Shown piece by piece: positions 758-20,470 of a stretch of DNA of 38,135 nt; position 1 is the first letter of the stretch; every line of letters starts with the position of its first letter. This DNA is from Methanobacteriota archaeon (lineage in GTDB: Archaea > Methanobacteriota > Methanobacteria > Methanobacteriales > Methanobacteriaceae). The notes under the pieces were generated by a model that saw only the letters and a program-made list of their open reading frames with translations, ran no database searches and was not told the origin of the DNA. The translations under genes and the position numbers were made by a program. The stretch is from positions 1 to 38,135 of the forward strand of contig JAEYQZ010000028.1 in assembly GCA_023409695.1 (NCBI GenBank). The letters run 5' to 3'.

Positions 758-1689
758 AATACGACGTTTCAGAAATTGAAAAGGTCGAGACAAGATGCCC
801 AGAATGCGATTCTGATAAACTCATTAATGATCACGAACGTGGGGAAATAGTATGCGGTGCGTGTGGTCTGGTTATCGATGATAATTTAGTTGATATGGGA
901 CCAGAATGGAGAGCATTTGACCATGAGCAAAGGGATAAAAGGACAAGAGTAGGTGCTCCAATAACTTACACCATCCACGATAAAGGTCTAAGTACCATGA
1001 TCGATTGGAGGAACAAGGACATCTATGGTAGGGATATTCCTGCTAGAAACCGTGCTCAATGGTACCGTTTAAGAAAATGGCAGAGAAAAATAAGGATCTC
1101 TGGTGCCACAGAAAGAAACCTTGCGTTTGCTTTGAGTGAACTTGATAGGGACTCTTCAAGACTTGGTTTGCCTAGAAGTGTGAGAGAAGCAGCTTCAGTT
1201 GATTACAGGAGCGCTGTTGAAAACAAACTCATAAGAGGGCGAAGTATAGAAGGTGTAGTTGCAGCATCATTATATGCAGCATGCAGACGTTGTAACGTTC
1301 CAAGGACTCTTGATGAGATTGCAGAAGTTTCTAGAGTAAGCAAAAAAGAAGTTGGAAGAACTTACAGGTTCTTAACACGTGAACTTAATATAAAATTACC
1401 ACCAACATCTCCAGTTGACTACGTACCAAGGTTTGCAAGTGAATTAAGCTTATCTGGTGAAGTACAATCCAAAGCTATTGAAATAATTGAAAAAGCAATG
1501 GAAAAAGGTCTTACATCTGGTAGGGGACCAACAGGAGTTGCAGCAGCAGCTTTATACATTGCATCTGTACTTCTCGGTGAGAGAAAAACTCAAAGGGATG
1601 TTGCAGACATCGCGGGTGTAACTGAAGTAACTATCCGTAACAGATACAAAGAGCTTACAGAACAGCTCGATATGGGTGTAACTTTATAG
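754..1689 (+). CDS. tfb: Transcription initiation factor IIB (TFB)
   Basis: Zn ribbon CPEC...CGAC, GPEWRAF B-reader, two cyclin repeats, [16 protein letters not shown] 754 overlaps the gar1 stop (ATGA); alternative ATG at 727. Confidence 0.97.
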
Positions 1690-3279: not shown

Positions 3280-4509
3280 TTGGCTGAAGTATCATCAAAA
3301 GAGTTATACGAGTTTAAAAGAACCATTGAAGAACTCGCAGATAAAAAAGGAAGGGGAACAGAACTTGTATCAGTTTATATCCCCCCAGATAAACAAGTTA
3401 GTGATGTAGTAAAGCACATGAGAGAAGAATTAAGTCAAAGTGCTAACATTAAGAGTAAACAAACAAAAAAGAATGTACAGTCTGCAATTGAGGTAATCGT
3501 GCAGAAATTGAAATTATTCCCAAAACCTCCCGAACATGGGCTGCTTCTTTTTGTTGGAATGATCCCTAAAGGCGGTCCTGGTACTGAAAAAATGGAAACT
3601 TACGTTTTTGAGCCGCCAGAAGTTATACAGACTTACACATATCACTGTAATTCTGAATTTTATCTGGAACCGCTTCAGAATATGTTGGATGTAAAAGAAA
3701 CATATGGTCTTGCGGTACTGGACAGAAAAGAAGCTACAATTGCTGTCTTACGCGGTAAACGAATTGATATTGTTAAAACATTAACTAGTGGTGTTCCCGG
3801 TAAGCACAAAGCAGGTGGACAATCTCAGCGAAGGTTTGATCGTTTAATTGACCTTGCAGCTCATGAATTCTTAAAAAGAATAGGACACCATATTAATGAT
3901 GCTTTCTTACCAATTCCTGATTTAAAAGGAGTAGTATTAGGTGGGCCTGGTCATACCAAGGAAGAGTTCCTTGAAGGGGATTATATGCATTACGAAATTA
4001 AAAATAAGGTCATAACCACTGTAGATACATCTTATACTGGTGAATTTGGTATAAGAGAAGTCATTGACAAGTCCATGGATGTTTTAAATGAAATGGATAT
4101 AATGCGTGAGAAAAAACTTGTACAGAGGTTTTTAAAGGAACTCATAAATGAAGATGGACTTGCATCTTATGGAGAAAAAGATGTAAGACGAAATCTTGAA
4201 ATGGGCGCAGTTGAAGTCCTTCTTCTATCTGAAGATGTTAGTTACAAGCGTGAAACATGTGAATGTCCTGCATGTGCATATACAGAAGGAAAAACCATTA
4301 AAAAATCTGAAGAAATAGGAAATGAACAGTGTCCACAATGTGGAGAAATAATGAAGGTTGTTGGATCAAGGGACATTATCGACGAGTTTGTTGATATGGC
4401 TGAAGAAGTCGGATCTGATATCGAGATTATTTCAACAGAAACAGAAGAGGGAATGCAGTTGTTACGTGCATTTGGTGGTATTGCTGGAATACTCAGGTAC
4501 AGAACATAG
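3280..4509 (+). CDS. prf1: Peptide chain release factor aRF1
   Basis: NIKS, YHC and GGQS motifs; C-terminal Cys-rich Zn-ribbon insert. TTG 3280 follows GGAGTGA RBS (track start GTG 3271 lies inside the RBS). Confidence 0.97.
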
Positions 4510-7842: not shown

Positions 7843-9180
7843 TTATCTTCGGGCAATATCTGAAAAATTGGATCTGTATATCAAAAGAATCATTTTAGAA
7901 TCCATTTGGACGGCTTCATCAATAGCATTATTAAAGTCAGTATACTTATATTTTCGTTTTATCATGTTTGTGATGTTTTTACCGAGTTCATCAACCAATA
8001 TAAGCTGAATTTTAGGATCCATGTCATTAAAAAACCTTGCAGTGGCCTCTTCATCTATCTCTTCACAGGTTACTCCATATTTGCCCCCAAAGATGACGGA
8101 TGGACTTTCTAGATCTTGAATCATTTTAACTGATTTTTTAATGGCCGTAACATTGATTCCAGGATTAATTTCCTCTATAATTTTACTTCTTTTGTAGCTT
8201 CTTATGGATGTCCGCCCATCGATCCCTTTAAAGTTTTTTAATCCTTTTCTAATTTGATTAATAGGAATTTTTAAAATCAAAGCAGCACATACAGCTCCGA
8301 GAACGTTGTTTAAATGGTGTTCTGCGGGTGCAAAAGTTGAAACAACAAATGAAGTATTTATAATAGTTCCATCTATGGTTTTAAGGCCATTAACTTCCAC
8401 GTTAAAAGATGTTTTGTCAAGCCCAAATTTTAAGTTAGATGCATAGACATTTGCGCCCTTATTAATGTCAAATGTAACTGTATTTTTGTTAAAATTGAGA
8501 TAAAACTGATTGTATGAATCAAAATCGCATGCAACTACCTTACTTTTAAATATTTGGGATTTGGCCTGACTTGCAGTTTTTCCTTTAGATGCTATGGTAT
8601 AATTTTCAGCTATATTGGTAAGTATACCTGCATCTGCAAGTCCTGTTCCTCCAAGAGAGGTTTCGAATATACAAATTCCAATATTTTTATAATCTTTAGC
8701 TAATTGCCATGTTTCAATGATGCTTGCAGGAGTTATGCTTATATTTTTTTTTAAGAGGGTGCTTGTACCGTTTTCTACAACTTCAACCCCTAAGCTGCTT
8801 AAAATTAATGGATTTAAATCGTTAAATATTTCCTTGAGCATTTTTACAGTGCTGGTCTTTCCTTTTACTCCCGTAACTTCAATTACAGGAACATTAATCT
8901 GGTCTTTCATCAGAAATTTAACTGCTTCGTGGTGGGTCATATCGACTTTTGAGTCAATTTTACAGTGTACTGGGGCAATGATTAAAAAATCATTATTATT
9001 TGCCTCATCCAGAAACGATTTTTCAACAAATTTTATCCTTTTTTTTTCTAAAGAGAGTTTTTCATCTAGAGAAAGCGTGTTGTAAATGTCTAATGCAAAA
9101 ACTTTAAAATCATCTAATTTTGAAAATTCTGAAGCTATTAATTTGCCTCCATGTGTCATGTCAACGATTAATGCATTCAT
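7843..9180 (-). CDS. cfbE: Coenzyme F430 synthetase (MurD/MurF-like ligase)
   Basis: N-terminal DMTHGG, P-loop EVTGVKGKTST, FETSLGGTG, EEINPGIN and TCEEID motifs characteristic of CfbE. Confidence 0.9.
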   Translation of the reverse strand: MNALIVDMTHGGKLIASEFSKLDDFKVFALDIYNTLSLDEKLSLEKKRIKFVEKSFLDEANNNDFLIIAPVHCKIDSKVDMTHHEAVKFLMKDQINVPVIEVTGVKGKTSTVKMLKEIFNDLNPLILSSLGVEVVENGTSTLLKKNISITPASIIETWQLAKDYKNIGICIFETSLGGTGLADAGILTNIAENYTIASKGKTASQAKSQIFKSKVVACDFDSYNQFYLNFNKNTVTFDINKGANVYASNLKFGLDKTSFNVEVNGLKTIDGTIINTSFVVSTFAPAEHHLNNVLGAVCAALILKIPINQIRKGLKNFKGIDGRTSIRSYKRSKIIEEINPGINVTAIKKSVKMIQDLESPSVIFGGKYGVTCEEIDEEATARFFNDMDPKIQLILVDELGKNITNMIKRKYKYTDFNNAIDEAVQMDSKMILLIYRSNFSDIARR

Positions 9181-9226: not shown

Positions 9227-10072
9227 TTATTCTAGTCCTATTCCGCCTTTTATGAGCTTTTCCCTCACTTTTTTATAGAACTCTTTGGTTAACCTTACAA
9301 AATAAGCATGCTGGTCTGATTTTTTAAATATAACCTCTTCCATGTAGTTGATTTCTTCTTCAACCTGTCCATCTATAACTGCTATGGCTTTTTTACCTTC
9401 TCTAAGCAGCTTTACACTTATTATACTTTCTCCAGATACTACTGTAGGACGCGAGCCAAGTTTAAATGGACATATGGGAACTATTATAAATGCATTTACA
9501 CGAGGATCAACAATAGGACCTCCTGCAGACATTGCATATGCAGTAGAACCACTTGGAGTTGCAATTATAAGTCCATCGGCCCGTAACTCTTCAACAATTT
9601 CATCGTCAACTCTTATTTCAAGATGGAGCATTTTTGCGGGTCTTCTAGTCATTAAAACAACTTCATTTAACGCCGGTGCCAGATCCTTGTTGTGCCATAC
9701 TTCAAGACGAGTACGTTCTTCAATGAAATAATTACCATTTAAAACTTCTTTAAGGGCATGGAATGACTCTTCAGGACCTATTTCTGTTAGAAAACCAACT
9801 GTACCCATATTTATCCCAAATATAGGGATATTTTTTCCATCTATAAAACTCTGGGTTCTTAAAATTGTCCCATCGCCCCCAATGGCAATGATAATATCTA
9901 CATCCATGTCATGGATTTCTCTGGCAGAATCATGGTATTTATCAAGCTTCTTTACAAGGGCAGTATCTAAAAAAACTTCTACTCCTTTCTTAATTAAAAA
10001 ATCAGTTAATTCATCTGTAAGTTCAATGGCTTTATGAATATCAAGGCGTGCCGCAATTCCTATGCGCATCAT
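9227..10072 (-). CDS. nadK: NAD kinase
   Basis: GGDGTIL, ALNE, DGLIIATPSGSTAYAMSAGGP motifs. Confidence 0.95.
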   Translation of the reverse strand: MMRIGIAARLDIHKAIELTDELTDFLIKKGVEVFLDTALVKKLDKYHDSAREIHDMDVDIIIAIGGDGTILRTQSFIDGKNIPIFGINMGTVGFLTEIGPEESFHALKEVLNGNYFIEERTRLEVWHNKDLAPALNEVVLMTRRPAKMLHLEIRVDDEIVEELRADGLIIATPSGSTAYAMSAGGPIVDPRVNAFIIVPICPFKLGSRPTVVSGESIISVKLLREGKKAIAVIDGQVEEEINYMEEVIFKKSDQHAYFVRLTKEFYKKVREKLIKGGIGLE

Positions 10073-13618: not shown

Positions 13619-14854
13619 ATGGATACAAGAGAAGTTAAACTTTCAGGTCATATAATAGATTCATTAACACTCCCAAAGACCCTTGATCTTATAATGGATA
13701 TGGGCGGGGACTTTGAGATTCTCGATGTTAACATAGGTAAACAGAAAAAAGATGTAAGTCATGCTAAAATACGAGTTATAGGAGATAATGAATCTCATTT
13801 AGGCGAAATTCTCGATGAATTAAGTGAAATAGGGGCAGTTATTTCTGAAATTAAGGAAATTGAACTTGTTCCATCTAAGAAGGATAAGACTCTCCCTGAT
13901 GATTTTTATTCAACCACAAATCATCCAACATCTGTAAGGTATGCTGGAGAATGGATCGAGGTTGAAGATATTGAAATGGATTGTATGATTGTAATTGATC
14001 CAGAAAGTAAACGCGCGTTATGTAAGCCGATAGGGCGAATCGAAGAGGGAGACTTAGTGGCCGTTGGAAGAGAAGGTATCAAAGTGGAACCTCCTGAAAG
14101 GCCAAGGGGTAAAAAAGGAGTCTTTGAATTCATGTCAAGTGAAGCATCTTCCGAAAAGCCGGTAAGATCCATAGTTAAAAACATAGCATCTGAAATCAGG
14201 GAAATTAAGAAAAGAAATGGAAAAATAGCTATAGTAGCAGGTCCTGCAATAGTACACACTGGATCAGCCCCAATTTTAGCCAGGATGATAAGAGAAGGGA
14301 TTATAGATGTATTATTTGCTGGAAATGCCCTTGCAACACACGATATTGAAAATGATCTCTATGGAACCTCCCTTGGAATATGCACAAGAAGTGGTGAAGC
14401 CGTTGTTAGGGGACACAGGCACCATATTTATGCAATCAATGAAATTAATAAAGCTGGTTCAATAAAAGATGCTGTTGAGAAGGGTGTACTGAAAAGCGGA
14501 ATCATGTATGAATGTGTTAAAAATGACGCACCTTTCGTACTTGCAGGTTCAATCAGAGATGACGGGCCACTTCCAGATGTTATAACTGACGTTATTCAAG
14601 CTCAGGATGAAATGCGTAAATATGCACAGGATGTTGACATGGTAATCATGATTGCAACCATGCTCCACTCCATAGCAGTTGGTAATATACTCCCATCTTA
14701 TGTAAAAAGCATATGTGTGGATATAAACCCTGCAACAGTCACAAAACTTGCAGATAGGGGAAGTGCACAGGTTGTGGGCGTTGTGACTGATGTCGGGGCA
14801 TTCTTGCCTATCCTTTACGAAAGTTTAGAAGGTTTAGATTGTATTAAAGATTAA
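13619..14854 (+). CDS. TIGR00300 family protein (LOR/SDH-domain, ArgZ-C-like ornithine cyclodeaminase candidate)
   Basis: [48 protein letters not shown] and KLADRGS motifs. Confidence 0.85.
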
Positions 14855-15953: not shown

Positions 15954-18335
15954 TCAATTTTGGCCTTTCACTTTAAGATCAGAGTAATTCATAGTGGGAG
16001 TATGTTCCGTATCTTCATAAACAGCATCATTCTTATTTTTAATTCCTATTCTCAGTGCATTAAGGATAACGGCAAGTGTTAAACCAACGTCTCCAAGGGT
16101 AACTGCTACCCATAACGAGACAAATCCAAATACTGCAAGTGCTGCAAGTGCTACTTGAATTAAAAGGGCTGCTGAAACGTTTTGTTTAACTACAGACATT
16201 GTTTTTCTACTTAAGTCAATGAGGTAATTGATTTTTGAGATGTCGTCCTGCATTAATGCTATATCTGCTGTTTCTATTGCTACATCAGATCCTGCAGCAC
16301 CCATAGCGATACCTACATTGGCTCTTGCAAGTGCTGGAGCGTCGTTTACACCATCACCGATCATTGCAACACATTCTCCTTTATCAAGTAGTTTATCAAC
16401 TATTTTGACTTTATCTTCAGGTAAAAGGCCGCTGTAATATTCATCAATTCCTATTTTGGCGGATACAGCTTTTGCAGTGCCTTCATTATCACCAGTAAGC
16501 ATGACAGTTTTAATATTTCTTTCTTTAAGTCCGGCAATGGTACTTTTTGAAAGGTCTCTTATTTTATCCATTAACCCTATTACAGCAAGTATGTGTTCAT
16601 CATTTCCAAGAATTACAGCGGTTTTACCATCATTTTGAAATTTGTTTATTAATTCTTCAGGAAACTCTGGATCACCTTTAAAAAGACTTTTTTTACCAAT
16701 ATGGAACATTTTATCATCTATTATGCCTTTAATACCGTTTCCAGTAATTGATTCAAAGTCTTTAACTTCTTTAAAGTCCATATTTGATTCTTCAACATAG
16801 TTTATAATTGCTTCTGCAAGGGGATGTTTAGATCTGGATTCCAGTGAACCTGCTATTTGAAGAATTTCATTTTTAGAGTAATTATTTAATGGTATAACAT
16901 CTGTGACTTCTAATTTTCCTTCTGTAAGGGTTCCAGTTTTATCGAAGACAATAGTACTGATATTTTTGATTTCTTCAACATATTTGGAACCTTTAATCAG
17001 TACACCATTTCTTGTACTTGCAGTTACCCCTGAGACCATAGCTACAGGAGTAGATAGTAAAAATGCGCATGGGCATGAAATTACCAGAAGAACCAGTGCT
17101 CTGTATATCCATGTGTATAACGGTTGTCCAAATATGAGTGGAGGTACTACTGCTATTGCAGCTGCAATCAAAACTACTGCAGGGGTGTAATATTTTGCAA
17201 ACCTTTCAATAAAAGCTTCAGTACTGGATTTTTTCTTCTGTGACTCTTTTACAAGCTTTATAATCTTTGAAAGTACTGTTTCATCTGATTTTTTAGTTAC
17301 TTTAACCTCTAAATATCCTTCTTCATTTAAAGTAGCTGCAAAAACATTGTCTCCTTCAATTTTAGTGACAGGTATGCTTTCTCCAGTAATTGCTGCCTGG
17401 TTTACTGCAGATACTCCATTAATCACTATCCCGTCTAATGAAATTTTCTCACCAGGTCTTACAACAAGAATGTCATTCACTTTTACATCATTTACATCTA
17501 ATTCAACGTTTTTACCGTTTATTTTAACAGTAGCAGTGTCTGGAACTAATTTTAAGAGGCTTTTTATGGATTTACGTGCTCTATTTCCAGCATAATCTTC
17601 TAAAAACTCTGCTATATAGAACAGGAATATTATTACAGCTCCTTCTGCACCGGATCCTATTGCAAAGGAAACAGTGACTGCTATGGTCATTAAAAGATTC
17701 ATGCTGAAATTACCTTTTAAAAGGCCCATAATTCCGCTTTTAATTATTTCATACCCGGACATTGCTATAACTGCTAAAAATATGATTTCAGATACTATTT
17801 CTTGACCTGTAACGTAATTGAAATACAATCCGATAGGCAGTAGTATAGCTGATGTAAGCATAACGAAAAGATTTTTTCTGGTCCATAAAGACTCTCTTTC
17901 TTCGAGTAATCCTTCATTGCAGCCGCATCCACATCCATGACTGGTACTTTCTAATTCACAAGTATCTTCCTGAGTTGAATCTTCACATCCGCAACCACAG
18001 GAGTCCTCTGTTTCTATTTCACAGGTATTATCTTCTTCGCCGTGGGCTGAATGTTCATCACAGTCACAATGGTGCTCTGAGTGACTTGTAATATGATTTT
18101 CTTCTTTTTCAGTTGAGTCTTCGTTGCAACCGCAGCCGCATGAATCTCCTGATTCTTCATCTCCACATATTGATCCTTTATTATTGTGGGCATGATTGTC
18201 ATCACAGTCATGGTGATTCATTTCTTTTATCTGGCAGGTATCCTGTTTTTCTTTGTTTTCAGTTGAATTATCACTGCAGGATTCATTTGATCTGTAATCT
18301 TCGGTTTTACAGGAAGTTATTTCTTTATTTTCCAT
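15954..18335 (-). CDS. Heavy-metal P1B-type ATPase (P1B-2, Zn/Cd/Pb; CadA/ZntA-like) with Cys/His-rich N-terminus
   Basis: [27 protein letters not shown]; Lys (KQN) and Asp-x-Gly (GDVG) in the last TM helices; ATG 18335 after GGAGA. Confidence 0.93.
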
Positions 18336-18658: not shown

Positions 18659-19018
18659 TTACAGTTTTTCTCGGGTATGTTCCACACCAAGCTCGATCAT
18701 TGAGACAACATGGTCATCTGCAAGAAAATAATAAGCCATTTTACCTTCTCTTCTGAATTTGACCAGATTTTTAGTTCTTAAAACTCGAAGCTGATGTGAA
18801 ATAGCTGATTGGCTCATATCAAGTACTGCAGCTAAATCGCAAACACATAAATCCTTTTTAGATAATGCATACAAAATTTTAAGTCTGGTTGAATCCCCAA
18901 ATATCTTAAAATTATCAGATACTTCAAAAAGAAGTTCGTCTTCAAGCATCTGAGACTTTATTTCTTTAACATTATCTTCGTGCACACATACAATTTCACA
19001 TGTATCTTTCTCTTCCAT
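18659..19018 (-). CDS. ArsR/SmtB family metal-sensing repressor (CadC/ZiaR-like)
   Basis: N-terminal CEIVCVH, alpha3 [23 protein letters not shown], alpha5 DDHV...EHTRE. Confidence 0.93.
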
Positions 19019-19269
19019 ATGAATAAATGGTCCTATTTATCCTATAAAATTTTGGATTTTAGTGCGCACAGATAGCTTTTCAATAATTTAAACATGCTTT
19101 GATGGTGCAGTAGCGTTCCTTCTACAATTAGGCTAAAATCAGATTGATTTATTTATAATCGCCAGTACTTTATTGGATATATTCATAAAAACAGGATATA
19201 TTTATGTTTTTAGATTTTAAAAATTATAAAATTCTTTAATTTTAGATTTCTCAAAAATAACTGGTTCAT

Positions 19270-19555
19270 TGATTATTCTTTAATAAGGAGGCGGGGATCT
19301 GGATAATTCCAGATCCCTTAAATTGGCTTTTTTGGAGGATAAATATGTATGGTAGACCTATTTAACGTGTAGTACATGTTTGACCCTAAATATGATTTTA
19401 AGCTAGTTTTTTGGCAGAAGAAGGCCTAAAACCATATTTAATGTTTAAATTGCTTAGAAAACATGGTTTTAAGATGTACATTTGAGCTGAGGATGACTCA
19501 AAACCATATTTTCATAACTTCCATATTTTTAGGCGAACCTAAATAATGTAAAGTT
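19270..19555 (-). ncRNA. Candidate structured small RNA with twin 17-bp stems and anti-SD motifs (ends approximate)
   Basis: Stems 19387-19403/19424-19440 and 19457-19473/19497-19513, all mismatches G-U on the minus strand; perfect 10-bp stem 19294-19317; upstream TATA; only very short ORFs (<=12 codons) seen from the nearby ATGs. Confidence 0.5.
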
Positions 19556-19604
19556 AGGTATACTTAAATTCTTCATTGTATATAAAGTTTTAGGCTTTCC
19601 TAAA
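19528..19604 (-). promoter_or_regulatory. TATA box flanked by three TTTAGG-N4-CCTAAA palindromes (DtxR/MntR-family-like operator)
   Basis: TTTAGGcgaaCCTAAA 19528-19543, TTAGGtataCTTAA 19554-19567, TTTAGGctttCCTAAA 19589-19604; TTTATATA on minus strand 19586-19579. Confidence 0.75.
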
Positions 19605-19666
19605 AATTAGTGAATTATTTTGAAACATTCGATTAAAATAATTCAAAAATAAAAATCAATTCAATT

Positions 19667-20470
19667 TTAAATGAATTTTATGTGGACGATTCGATTACCA
19701 AACCTGTCTTTAAAGGTTGGAATTAGCGACAGCCATCGTATTATTTTCCATCTATCTTTATGGTAGTCAAAGTAATGCCAATCTTCAATAAATTCAATTC
19801 CATCGTTCAGTTTTTCAATTTCTTTTCCTTTTTTGATTCCCCACTGGAGTCTGGCTTCTATCTGATACTGATCCTTGATAATATCCTGCTTCTGGTTTTG
19901 TTTTACCAGTGATGCAGGTGTGGTCTCAAGAAGCATTTCAACCTCCTTAAATGCAGCGGCTAATTTACTCATTATGTCTTTAACTTCCTGTTCTGTGAGA
20001 TACATGAATATTCCCTCTGCAATTATCATAACATGTTCATTTGCATTGATATCATCTATCCATGAGTAGTCAAATACAGATTTGGCGATCATTTTATGTC
20101 TTTCACTTTCCTGAAAGAATTGCTTTCGAATACTGATTACTTCAGGTAAATCCAGGTCATACCAAATAATTCTGCCATTATCCGCCCTTAAAAAACGAGT
20201 ATCAAGGCCACACCCAATATTGATGATGGTGGCATCTTGATATTTATCAATAAAAGATTTTACTGCTCTATCTAAAATTTCAGTTCGAACAGCAACACTG
20301 ACCAGTGTTGGCTCTTGATTCTTAAATTTGGAAAAGTCATATTCAATTTGGTCCATTATCTCTATGGCTTTTTCATCTTTAATAATGGGATTATCATTTT
20401 TTGTTTCTGTTGCCCGGGCCCACAGGGGAACCAGCAATGTTTCAGGCACGCCTTTTAATTTTTGCTCCAT
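19667..20470 (-). CDS. Class I SAM-dependent methyltransferase (LCM/TcmP family)
   Basis: ETLLVPLWARA, NIGCGLDTR, WYDLDLPEVI, IAEGIFMYL motifs. Confidence 0.88.
   Translation of the reverse strand: MEQKLKGVPETLLVPLWARATETKNDNPIIKDEKAIEIMDQIEYDFSKFKNQEPTLVSVAVRTEILDRAVKSFIDKYQDATIINIGCGLDTRFLRADNGRIIWYDLDLPEVISIRKQFFQESERHKMIAKSVFDYSWIDDINANEHVMIIAEGIFMYLTEQEVKDIMSKLAAAFKEVEMLLETTPASLVKQNQKQDIIKDQYQIEARLQWGIKKGKEIEKLNDGIEFIEDWHYFDYHKDRWKIIRWLSLIPTFKDRFGNRIVHIKFI

Follow-up and report, generated by a model that had tools for sequence, protein, structure and literature searches.

A 38,135-nucleotide stretch of DNA from an archaeon of the family Methanobacteriaceae (GenBank assembly GCA_023409695.1, contig JAEYQZ010000028.1; hereafter the window) carries, in a 648-bp gap (19019-19666) between three minus-strand genes, a conserved unit that is probably a metal-repressed, and probably iron-repressed, trans-acting small RNA (sRNA) masking the ribosome-binding sites of frhA and hdrA. 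The host genome is that of a hydrogenotrophic methanogen, in which frhADGB, an HdrA-family gene, hdrB and fwdB are present. The original prediction for this locus had proposed a minus-strand sRNA repressed by metal, acting in trans and blocking ribosome-binding sites, and it finds support in silico in the structure, the strand and the autonomy of the unit and in the promoter boxes shared with other loci. Conserved structure, strand, non-coding nature, autonomy, a shared operator and conserved complementarity are all observed here.

Structure and strand of the predicted RNA

Two inverted repeats of the gap (19387-19403/19424-19440 and 19457-19473/19497-19513) have 17-nt arms that are 88% Watson-Crick complementary, and on the minus strand they form two hairpins, stem-loop 1 (SL1) and stem-loop 2 (SL2; Table 1), each with an unbroken 17-bp stem that includes two G.U pairs. 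These are the twin stems of the original prediction, whose remark that A-C mismatches on the plus strand turn into G-U pairs on the minus strand was borne out as well. The fold of the minus-strand RNA has an energy of -72.1 kcal/mol (z = -5.7), which none of 100 shuffles equalled, and that of the plus strand has z = -3.5.

Homologues were collected and examined for covariation, and the stems proved to be kept through compensatory changes. For SL1 (alignment A1, 22 sequences, 17 pairs), 87.7% of 358 cells are paired against 32-51% when slid, 8 pairs are altered on both sides, and the covariation score is reached by 0 of 500 shuffles; the corresponding figures for SL2 (alignment A2, 14 sequences, 18 pairs) are 86.9% against 33-49%, with 7 pairs altered on both sides, a result that 0 of 500 shuffles reached. 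The terminal hairpin of the unit (alignment A3) has 87.4% of its cells paired and one pair changed from G-C to A-U in 5 sequences, and a search of the alignment for covariation in the small hairpin at 19363-19341 saw none either way. Because G.U cells outnumber A.C cells by 78 to 23 over the three alignments together, the RNA strand is the minus strand of the window, as had been proposed. SL1 and SL2 are homologous to each other, since the models R1 (SL1) and R2 (SL2) each match the other hairpin. The same loop core is also found on wholly different stems (G168, G001, G002, G216, G177, G111, G079), and the stem of genus g31 has two compensatory pairs; the unrelated stems that bear the same loop core are the strongest structural evidence.

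Complementarity to the start regions of frhA and hdrA

The target scan covered positions -40 to +25 around each start of the 2731 predicted genes of the own genome. A 14-nt stretch from -8 to +5 or +6 of frhA is the Watson-Crick complement of the loop-1 consensus. This gene (C209:5136), which opens frhADGB, matches TIGR03295 with 616 bits (cutoff 392) and is the sole one among the 2731 start regions with more than 11 nt, the next-best gene having 11. The paired stretch reaches from just past the Shine-Dalgarno sequence across the UUG start codon; its 13-mer is unique in the genome, 0.007 occurrences of a given 13-mer being expected over all start regions. The duplex of the own loop 1 with frhA has an energy of -22.0 kcal/mol (rank 6 of 2715). 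In a search for near-perfect long complements of the four single-stranded segments of the own RNA (4 mismatches or fewer), loop 1 gave self-matches only, and the frhA match surfaced solely in the thermodynamic and consensus scans. Across relatives, the frhA start region pairs over 10-17 nt with 23 of 28 SL1 copies (17 nt in G021), and in 22 of these 23 copies 0 of 200 shuffles were as good (G011 had 1). The frhA site GATACATTTGAGC is identical in 48 of 61 genomes, including 17 of the 17 SL1 carriers among them; eight further SL1 carriers have their cognate frhA outside this 61-genome comparison. Across the family, these 61 genomes show hardly any variation in the frhA start region, UUG start codon included.

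The HdrA-family gene C25:795 leads the matches of loop 2: the complementary 11 nt run from +2 to +12 and take in the start codon and codons 2-4. Seven other genes reach 10 nt. Cognate pairs of 10-14 nt are found in 8 of the 12 genomes that have both partners, and in G004 a loop change from C to U is matched by an hdrA change from G to A. Inspection of the sequences by eye indicates that in G019, G021 and genus g31 the loop is complementary to the Shine-Dalgarno block of hdrA as well, and that the first loop of genus g31 forms 10 + 9 bp around a 2x2 internal loop with the hdrA start region. The motif TGGCAGAAGAA occurs in 26 of 41 hdrA start regions; in these 41 genomes the region is strongly conserved, with AUG in some genera and apparently UUG in g29, g17 and g22. 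The original prediction had described the loops as pyrimidine-rich and anti-Shine-Dalgarno: complementarity to the region of ribosome-binding sites holds, and in place of a generic anti-Shine-Dalgarno character we find gene-specific antisense to the starts of frhA and hdrA. This loop-1/frhA and loop-2/hdrA complementarity appears to be what is new here.

Promoter boxes and the DtxR-family repressor

A conserved minus-strand TATA box is surrounded by three boxes of the form TTTAGG-N4-CCTAAA (boxes A, B and C; Table 1), one upstream of it, one over the predicted start and one just downstream, an arrangement that on its sequence is the layout of a repressor. The TATA and two exact palindromes of the original prediction were found; its third box carries one mismatch in the window and is exact in G017, G004 and G019 in the 12-sequence alignment. 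Transcription would start near 19555, as judged from the usual TATA-to-start distance.

Six exact boxes occur in the own genome against 2.75 expected, and allowing one mismatch gives 75 sites in 2.63 Mb. Clusters of at least two boxes (one mismatch allowed) are found at only two places in these 2.63 Mb, the RNA locus with its three boxes and C180:5294/5349, where the boxes flank a TATA before the gene for a 245-aa protein with Fe_dep_repress, Fe_dep_repr_C and FeoA domains (Pfam). A feoB homologue directly follows this repressor gene (33% identity, 686 aa, E 1e-99). Among the NCBIfam models the repressor is nearest to MntR (115 bits, below cutoff), with DtxR at 87 bits. Of eight islands of relatives, all have a box pair in front of the RNA unit, six have one in front of feoA or feoB, and four have one in front of a P-type ATPase-cbiX operon, where a fifth locus has a single box. 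The RNA promoter and the promoter region of feoA in G008 share 84% identity, and G013 has a boxed promoter in front of a dtxR-like gene. The expectation that the same box would precede feoAB genes was thus confirmed, both at the own dtxR-feoB cluster and at feoAB promoters of relatives; as for a DtxR-family operator, the palindrome is common to promoters of metal-uptake genes and of a DtxR-family gene. Because the feo genes share the boxes, iron, as Fe(II), is most likely the signal metal.

Extent, conservation and autonomy of the unit

We consider it probable that a non-coding RNA gene occupies the minus strand from 19555 to about 19253, which would give an RNA of about 300 nt, or of about 274 nt if it ended at an earlier UUAUU. 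The likeliest termination site is the oligo-U stretch UUAUUUUU at 19260-19253. In an alignment of 12 homologues the modules follow in the order box A, TATA, box B, box C, SL1 and SL2 with nearly invariant loops, CAAACAUG, the small hairpin with AUCCUCCAAAA, the GC-rich hairpin, GACCUCCUUAUU and a T-run; within the small-hairpin module, CCUCCAAAA is invariant in 13 of 13 aligned sequences. The 10-bp hairpin, the CCUCCUU and CAUAUUUAUCCUCC listed in Table 1 all lie where they had been predicted.

No open reading frame (ORF) longer than 27 aa lies in the unit; three ORFs of at least 20 aa overlap 19100-19660, the longest of 27 aa, and this agrees with the earlier view that no convincing protein gene follows the promoter. 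A small protein was therefore rejected, the three short ORFs straddling the stems. The sequence of the gap finds matches at E<=0.001 in 21 of 41 genomes (G000 included), among them 18 of 22 of the same genus. What follows the unit varies: arsR-ATPase (G000, G018), a convergent fur (G015, G022, G009), feoA (G008, G012) or cbiX (G017). The unit is self-contained, since it has at least four different downstream neighbours. In G008 and G012 feoA comes after a complete RNA module and behind a second box pair of its own. The varying 3' genes, the boxes of feoA and the T-runs past the methyltransferase stop codon argue that the unit is neither the leader of one gene nor the remnant of a deleted gene, and two findings that could have undone the original prediction, a protein gene behind these boxes in relatives and a leader continuing into arsR, were not made: feoA in G008 and G012 has its own boxes, and the downstream genes differ among genomes. 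On sequence alone, the unit has the marks of an independent non-coding gene (no ORF above 27 aa, a conserved TATA, a 3' hairpin, an oligo-U run, varying neighbours), and as a whole it lacks the single downstream gene family of a cis-leader or riboswitch.

A sequence search found no second copy in the own genome (next-best match E 0.009), where R1 and R2 match this locus alone. A class of dispersed repeats or miniature inverted-repeat transposable elements (MITEs) was rejected on this single copy; G021 has up to 3 SL1-bearing copies. No family of Rfam 15 reached its threshold, and the three matches lay far below it (best pntA, 24.4 bits against 54, E 0.61), so that by gathering score the RNA belongs neither to RyhB, FsrA or IsrR nor to any other Rfam family. 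A scan for bacterial-type promoters and terminators, uninformative for an archaeon, gave 0 terminators.

Proposed mode of action

With metal plentiful, the metal-loaded DtxR homologue would sit on the boxes and silence the RNA, which would be made when metal, most likely Fe(II), is scarce. Each large loop of the two homologous 17-bp hairpins would then serve as an antisense head: loop 1 would pair with the stretch from Shine-Dalgarno sequence to start codon of frhA (frhADGB, the F420-reducing [NiFe] hydrogenase) and loop 2 with hdrA (for heterodisulfide reductase subunit A) at its start codon and initial codons, while further CCUCC stretches might make extra contacts to ribosome-binding sites. 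Such pairing would block translation initiation of two enzymes of hydrogenotrophic methanogenesis and thereby spare iron. Frh and HdrA are abundant and contain several iron-sulfur clusters each. Transcription of the unit, its repression by metal, the choice of iron, and target binding with its effect are what we infer from the features described above.

Alternative explanations

RNA libraries gave 3-4 runs with a few words of the stretch: X18 and X19 held short AT-rich pieces and X20 one low-depth contig. In the one informative metatranscriptome, a G022-like relative is represented by strandless contigs that cover 19328-19383 and 19388-20021. The locus could be read as the 3' untranslated region of the methyltransferase gene, as the leader of a downstream operon (arsR-ATPase here) or as what remains of the leader of a lost feoAB. 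The second contig, running from the 3' end of the methyltransferase gene across the promoter to SL2, would suit this explanation, as would the downstream feoA of G008 and G012 and the absence from the own genome of the fur-katG-feoAB block, which separates arsR from the unit in G015, G022 and G009. We nevertheless regard it as quite unlikely, given the T-runs past the methyltransferase stop codon, the conserved TATA and boxes of the unit itself, its conserved 3' hairpin and oligo-U run, and downstream genes of at least four kinds, one of them convergent; moreover, beyond the full RNA module of G008 and G012 feoA is served by a paralogous promoter with a second pair of boxes, and arsR has a TATA-like element of its own near its start codon. 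It is very improbable that the palindromes and stems work as DNA only, as protein-binding inverted repeats or the relic of a mobile element with no functional RNA, for the 78 G.U against 23 A.C cells have relevance only in RNA, the loops are more strictly conserved than the stems, which are swapped for unrelated pairs, and the own genome has a single copy; this holds even though boxes are by nature DNA operators, the stems are long inverted repeats, and the modules occur in several genomic contexts with MITE-like elements inserted nearby in relatives. A real, box-controlled structured RNA might, on the other hand, bind a protein through its loops (for example an iron-responsive RNA-binding protein) and act as a decoy or as a cis stability element. 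The hairpin module is indeed found in the 5' leaders of secreted-protein genes (G021_C5, G013_C9, G013_C39, G013_C45, G013_C22) and just 3' of dtxR-like genes (G013_C34, G021_C11b), the stems retain some sequence (AUAUGGUUUUA) besides pairing, and the third conserved module comes without a convincing target. Yet the loop core is kept while stems change wholly, and it seems not to be needed in cis because the 5'-leader copies have lost it while stems vary elsewhere; as 23 of the 28 copies match frhA with their core over 10-17 nt (for most of them, none of 200 shuffles did equally well) and loop 2 tracks hdrA in several lineages, we judge protein binding to be unlikely.

Several points weigh against a metal-repressed sRNA that masks frhA and hdrA. 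In the own genome the frhA duplex ranks 6, not 1, by energy and the hdrA duplex only 38 of 2715, and the own loop 1 makes 11 contiguous pairs with frhA, not 14. Five SL1 copies come without a frhA complement, three of them in 5' leaders of protein genes (G021C5, G013C9, G013C39) and the others in G121 and G152. Genera in which no such RNA was found conserve the start regions of frhA and hdrA just as well, so this conservation needs no RNA; the start regions of highly expressed genes are often retained. A helix of 14 bp inside a closed loop of 23 nt is under topological strain. The counts overstate independence because the compared sequences are kin. The metatranscriptome contig that spans the methyltransferase gene, the promoter and SL2 fits read-through or contaminating DNA equally well. 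As to the metal, the MntR model outscores DtxR for the repressor and boxes also stand at the P-type ATPase-cbiX operon, so that manganese is possible.

Other target candidates and related hairpins

Two further genes were tried as targets of the CCUCC stretches and rejected as no better than many others: hdrB (11 nt, rank 156 of 2715, with 24 genes at 10 nt or more) and fwdB (10 nt, rank 138 of 2715, with 9 genes at 10 nt or more). For the third conserved module, the small hairpin with its single strand, the start-region and duplex scans gave no convincing target; its best duplex (-29.4 kcal/mol) is with the gene of a 239-aa membrane-like protein (C154), for which no iron link was found. In the leader of a nitroreductase gene (C262:12984, 172 aa), AUUUGAGCUGAAGGUGAU can form 17 of 18 pairs with the 5' half of loop 1 (rank 2). 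This site is kept in the closest clade only, fully in G000, G012 and G008 and partly in G009 and G015; since it is absent from the RNA carriers G004 and G011, the gene was rejected as main target and would at most be a lineage-specific secondary one.

Model R1 matched 18 of 151 family genomes, G000 included (8 of 13 in g1, 4 of 12 in g29, 4 of 12 in g31 and 1 of 13 in g17). Of 201 genomes, 47 contained the pattern AGCTCAAATGTRT, with 49 matches in all; its reversed control gave 6. When the 33 previously unknown matches were inspected, 10 lay in hairpin loops and 23 did not, being mostly in ORFs, and all those in g3, g9, g10 and g14 were of the non-hairpin kind; because the remaining inspected matches lie outside hairpin loops, a hairpin-presented motif is shown only in g1, g29, g31, g17 and g28.

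Some genes for secreted, repeat-rich proteins carry in their 5' leaders an SL1 variant whose loop, UCAUCUUAAUGUAAG, does not complement frhA; in G021 C5 and G013 C9 this variant comes after a boxed promoter. Copies of SL2 lie directly 3' of dtxR-like genes in L046 (G013 C34, 1494-1566) and L089 (G021 C11, 15128-15193; genome coordinates); the dtxR-like gene of G013 C34 has boxes in front. The repressor mRNA may thus carry an anti-hdrA head at its 3' end. In G021 there are also copies without SL2. Stand-alone hairpins of a second class, found at unrelated loci, combine ..GGGCAUC../..GAUGCCC.. stems with the same loop core AGCUCAAAUGUAUC, and no exact box was seen within about 160 nt upstream in the five loci examined. 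Genus g31 (L076-L079: G098, G147, G171, G122) has a version of the RNA with three tandem hairpins, the third loop being UCUCCCCUUAAAUCCUCUUUAUUC, and this RNA is convergent to the 411-aa gene found beside the island in the window as well (13619-14854). In genus g29, a T7-T8 run immediately follows SL1 in L047 and L048 (G062, G109), and about 130 nt beyond stands a gene (MVSKVYFTDFRS...) whose ribosome-binding site GCUGAGGGAG complements the 5' half of loop 1 (CCUCAGC) and which may be a target in cis or in trans.

In five relatives the RNA gene is split by MITE-like insertions with terminal hairpins of the GTAAAAAAATCT...GATTTTTTTAC type; these are confined to the linkers, before SL1 or after SL2, and never lie within a module.

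Genomic neighbourhood and coordinates

The unit stands downstream of a methyltransferase gene, from which the T-runs at 19636-19655 likely part it as a terminator, and upstream of an arsR gene followed by a P-type ATPase gene (Table 1). The long N-terminal region of the ATPase abounds in His, Cys, Asp and Glu (CGCGC and HxH repeats), which looks typical for heavy-metal binding, and the ATPase gene has no boxes of its own. In G015, G022 and G009 (L028, L029, L031) about 7 kb separate arsR from the RNA unit and contain fur, a 722-aa catalase-peroxidase-like gene (katG), two small genes and feoAB; this block is missing from the window (18659-19666 compared) and from G018.

Table 1. Features of the predicted RNA unit and its surroundings in the window, with related loci in other genomes
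Feature	Position	Strand	Remarks
LCM-type methyltransferase gene	20470-19667	-	upstream neighbour; Pfam LCM methyltransferase match
T-runs (T5, T5, T4)	19636-19655	-	just past methyltransferase stop codon 19669-19667; read from sequence
Box A, TTTAGGCTTTCCTAAA	19589-19604		exact TTTAGG-N4-CCTAAA palindrome; just upstream of TATA; kept in 9 of 12 aligned relatives
TATA box, TTTATATA	19586-19579	-	AAAAC before it; invariant or nearly so in 12 of 12 aligned homologues
Box B, TTAGGTATACTTAA	19554-19567		one mismatch to palindrome; overlaps predicted start near 19555
Box C, TTTAGGCGAACCTAAA	19528-19543		exact TTTAGG-N4-CCTAAA palindrome; about +13 to +28 of predicted RNA
SL1	19457-19513	-	17-bp stem; 23-nt loop 19496-19474, UCAUCCUCAGCUCAAAUGUACAU; fold and covariation
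SL2	19387-19440	-	17-bp stem; 20-nt loop 19423-19404 with UUCUUCUGCCA; fold and covariation
Small-hairpin module	19328-19363	-	hairpin AAAUAGGU/ACAUAUUU 19363-19341, then single-stranded AUCCUCCAAAAAA 19340-19328; alignment
CAUAUUUAUCCUCC	19334-19347		present where originally placed
Terminal hairpin, GGGAUCUGGA-AUUA-UCCAGAUCCC	19294-19317	-	10 bp, GC-rich; sequence and fold
3' tail	19253-19293	-	conserved CGCCUCCUUAUU 19293-19282, then UUAUUUUU 19260-19253; sequence, alignment
CCUCCUU	19285-19291	-	read from sequence
ArsR-family regulator gene	19018-18659	-	downstream neighbour
P-type ATPase gene	18359-15954	-	downstream of arsR
MITE-like insertion, L031 (G009)	16205-16463		
MITE-like insertion, L032 (G012)	about 9690-9737		
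MITE-like insertion, L034 (G016)	about 9043-9100		
MITE-like insertion, L029 (G022)	3480-3800		
MITE-like insertion, L018 (G004)	about 885-1010		
SL1-variant leaders			L057 (G021 C5), L021 (G013 C9), L056 (G013 C39), L084 (G013 C45), L088 (G013 C22)
Second-class hairpins			L080 (G001), L182 (G002), L082 (G168), L157 (G216), L166 (G177), L169 (G111), L261 (G079)

Comparison with known systems and significance

Iron-sparing sRNAs are a textbook bacterial strategy, RyhB (Fur-repressed, in enterobacteria) and FsrA (in Bacillus subtilis) being base-pairing sRNAs of this kind. IsrR of Staphylococcus aureus is reportedly another (PMC11257911, PMC12235713). The unit resembles these three in being a stand-alone non-coding gene, in having a promoter overlapped by putative operators of a repressor that would also control iron uptake, and in its pyrimidine-rich loops or single strands predicted to lie over the ribosome-binding sites of mRNAs for abundant iron enzymes. 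It differs from them in having no sequence or Rfam relationship to them, an archaeal host, a DtxR-family repressor in place of Fur, frhA and hdrA as predicted targets, and its antisense in large loops of two homologous 17-bp hairpins.

Within the methanogens, sRNA162 of Methanosarcina mazei is reported as a trans-acting sRNA that masks ribosome-binding sites (PMC3510493). The likeness lies in a methanogen sRNA proposed to pair with mRNA start regions through separate domains per target; sRNA162 and related archaeal sRNAs differ in belonging to another methanogen order, in showing no detected similarity, and in answering to nitrogen or carbon signals, unlike the metal signal proposed here. The boxes, for their part, are like operators of the DtxR/IdeR/MntR family in being TTAGG/CCTAA-armed palindromes at feoAB and at the promoter of the repressor itself, a protein with the three Pfam domains, and unlike them in that the operator also stands at a non-coding RNA gene. 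We know of no metal-repressor operator described for sRNA162 or related archaeal sRNAs. Archaeal DtxR regulons are reportedly described by Leyn and Rodionov (J Bacteriol, 2015). Within the papers that the literature search covered, no iron-responsive archaeal sRNA and none for this methanogen group came up; an earlier mention of the site elsewhere may exist.

More tentatively, and a little short of what we would call probable, the hairpins may belong to an archaeal riboregulator family of exchangeable heads antisense to the ribosome-binding sites of methanogenesis enzymes, with loop 1 for frhA, loop 2 for hdrA and others in other genera, wired to a DtxR-family repressor.

Hydrogenotrophic methanogens are among the most iron-sulfur-dependent organisms, and little has been established about the way they ration iron among Frh, Hdr, Fwd and other enzymes. 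The locus offers a testable circuit, with a sensor (the DtxR homologue), an operator (TTAGG-N4-CCTAA), a riboregulator and two named targets, and archaeal RNA biology gains a conserved sRNA candidate with predicted targets and natural covariation. If the reading as a riboregulator family is right, Archaea would have their first described iron-sparing sRNA, an independent invention of the logic of RyhB; the translation of hydrogenase and heterodisulfide reductase, and hence the methane-forming capacity of the cell, would be governed by iron supply. The circuit would bear on the control of methane production by trace metals in digesters, soils and guts.

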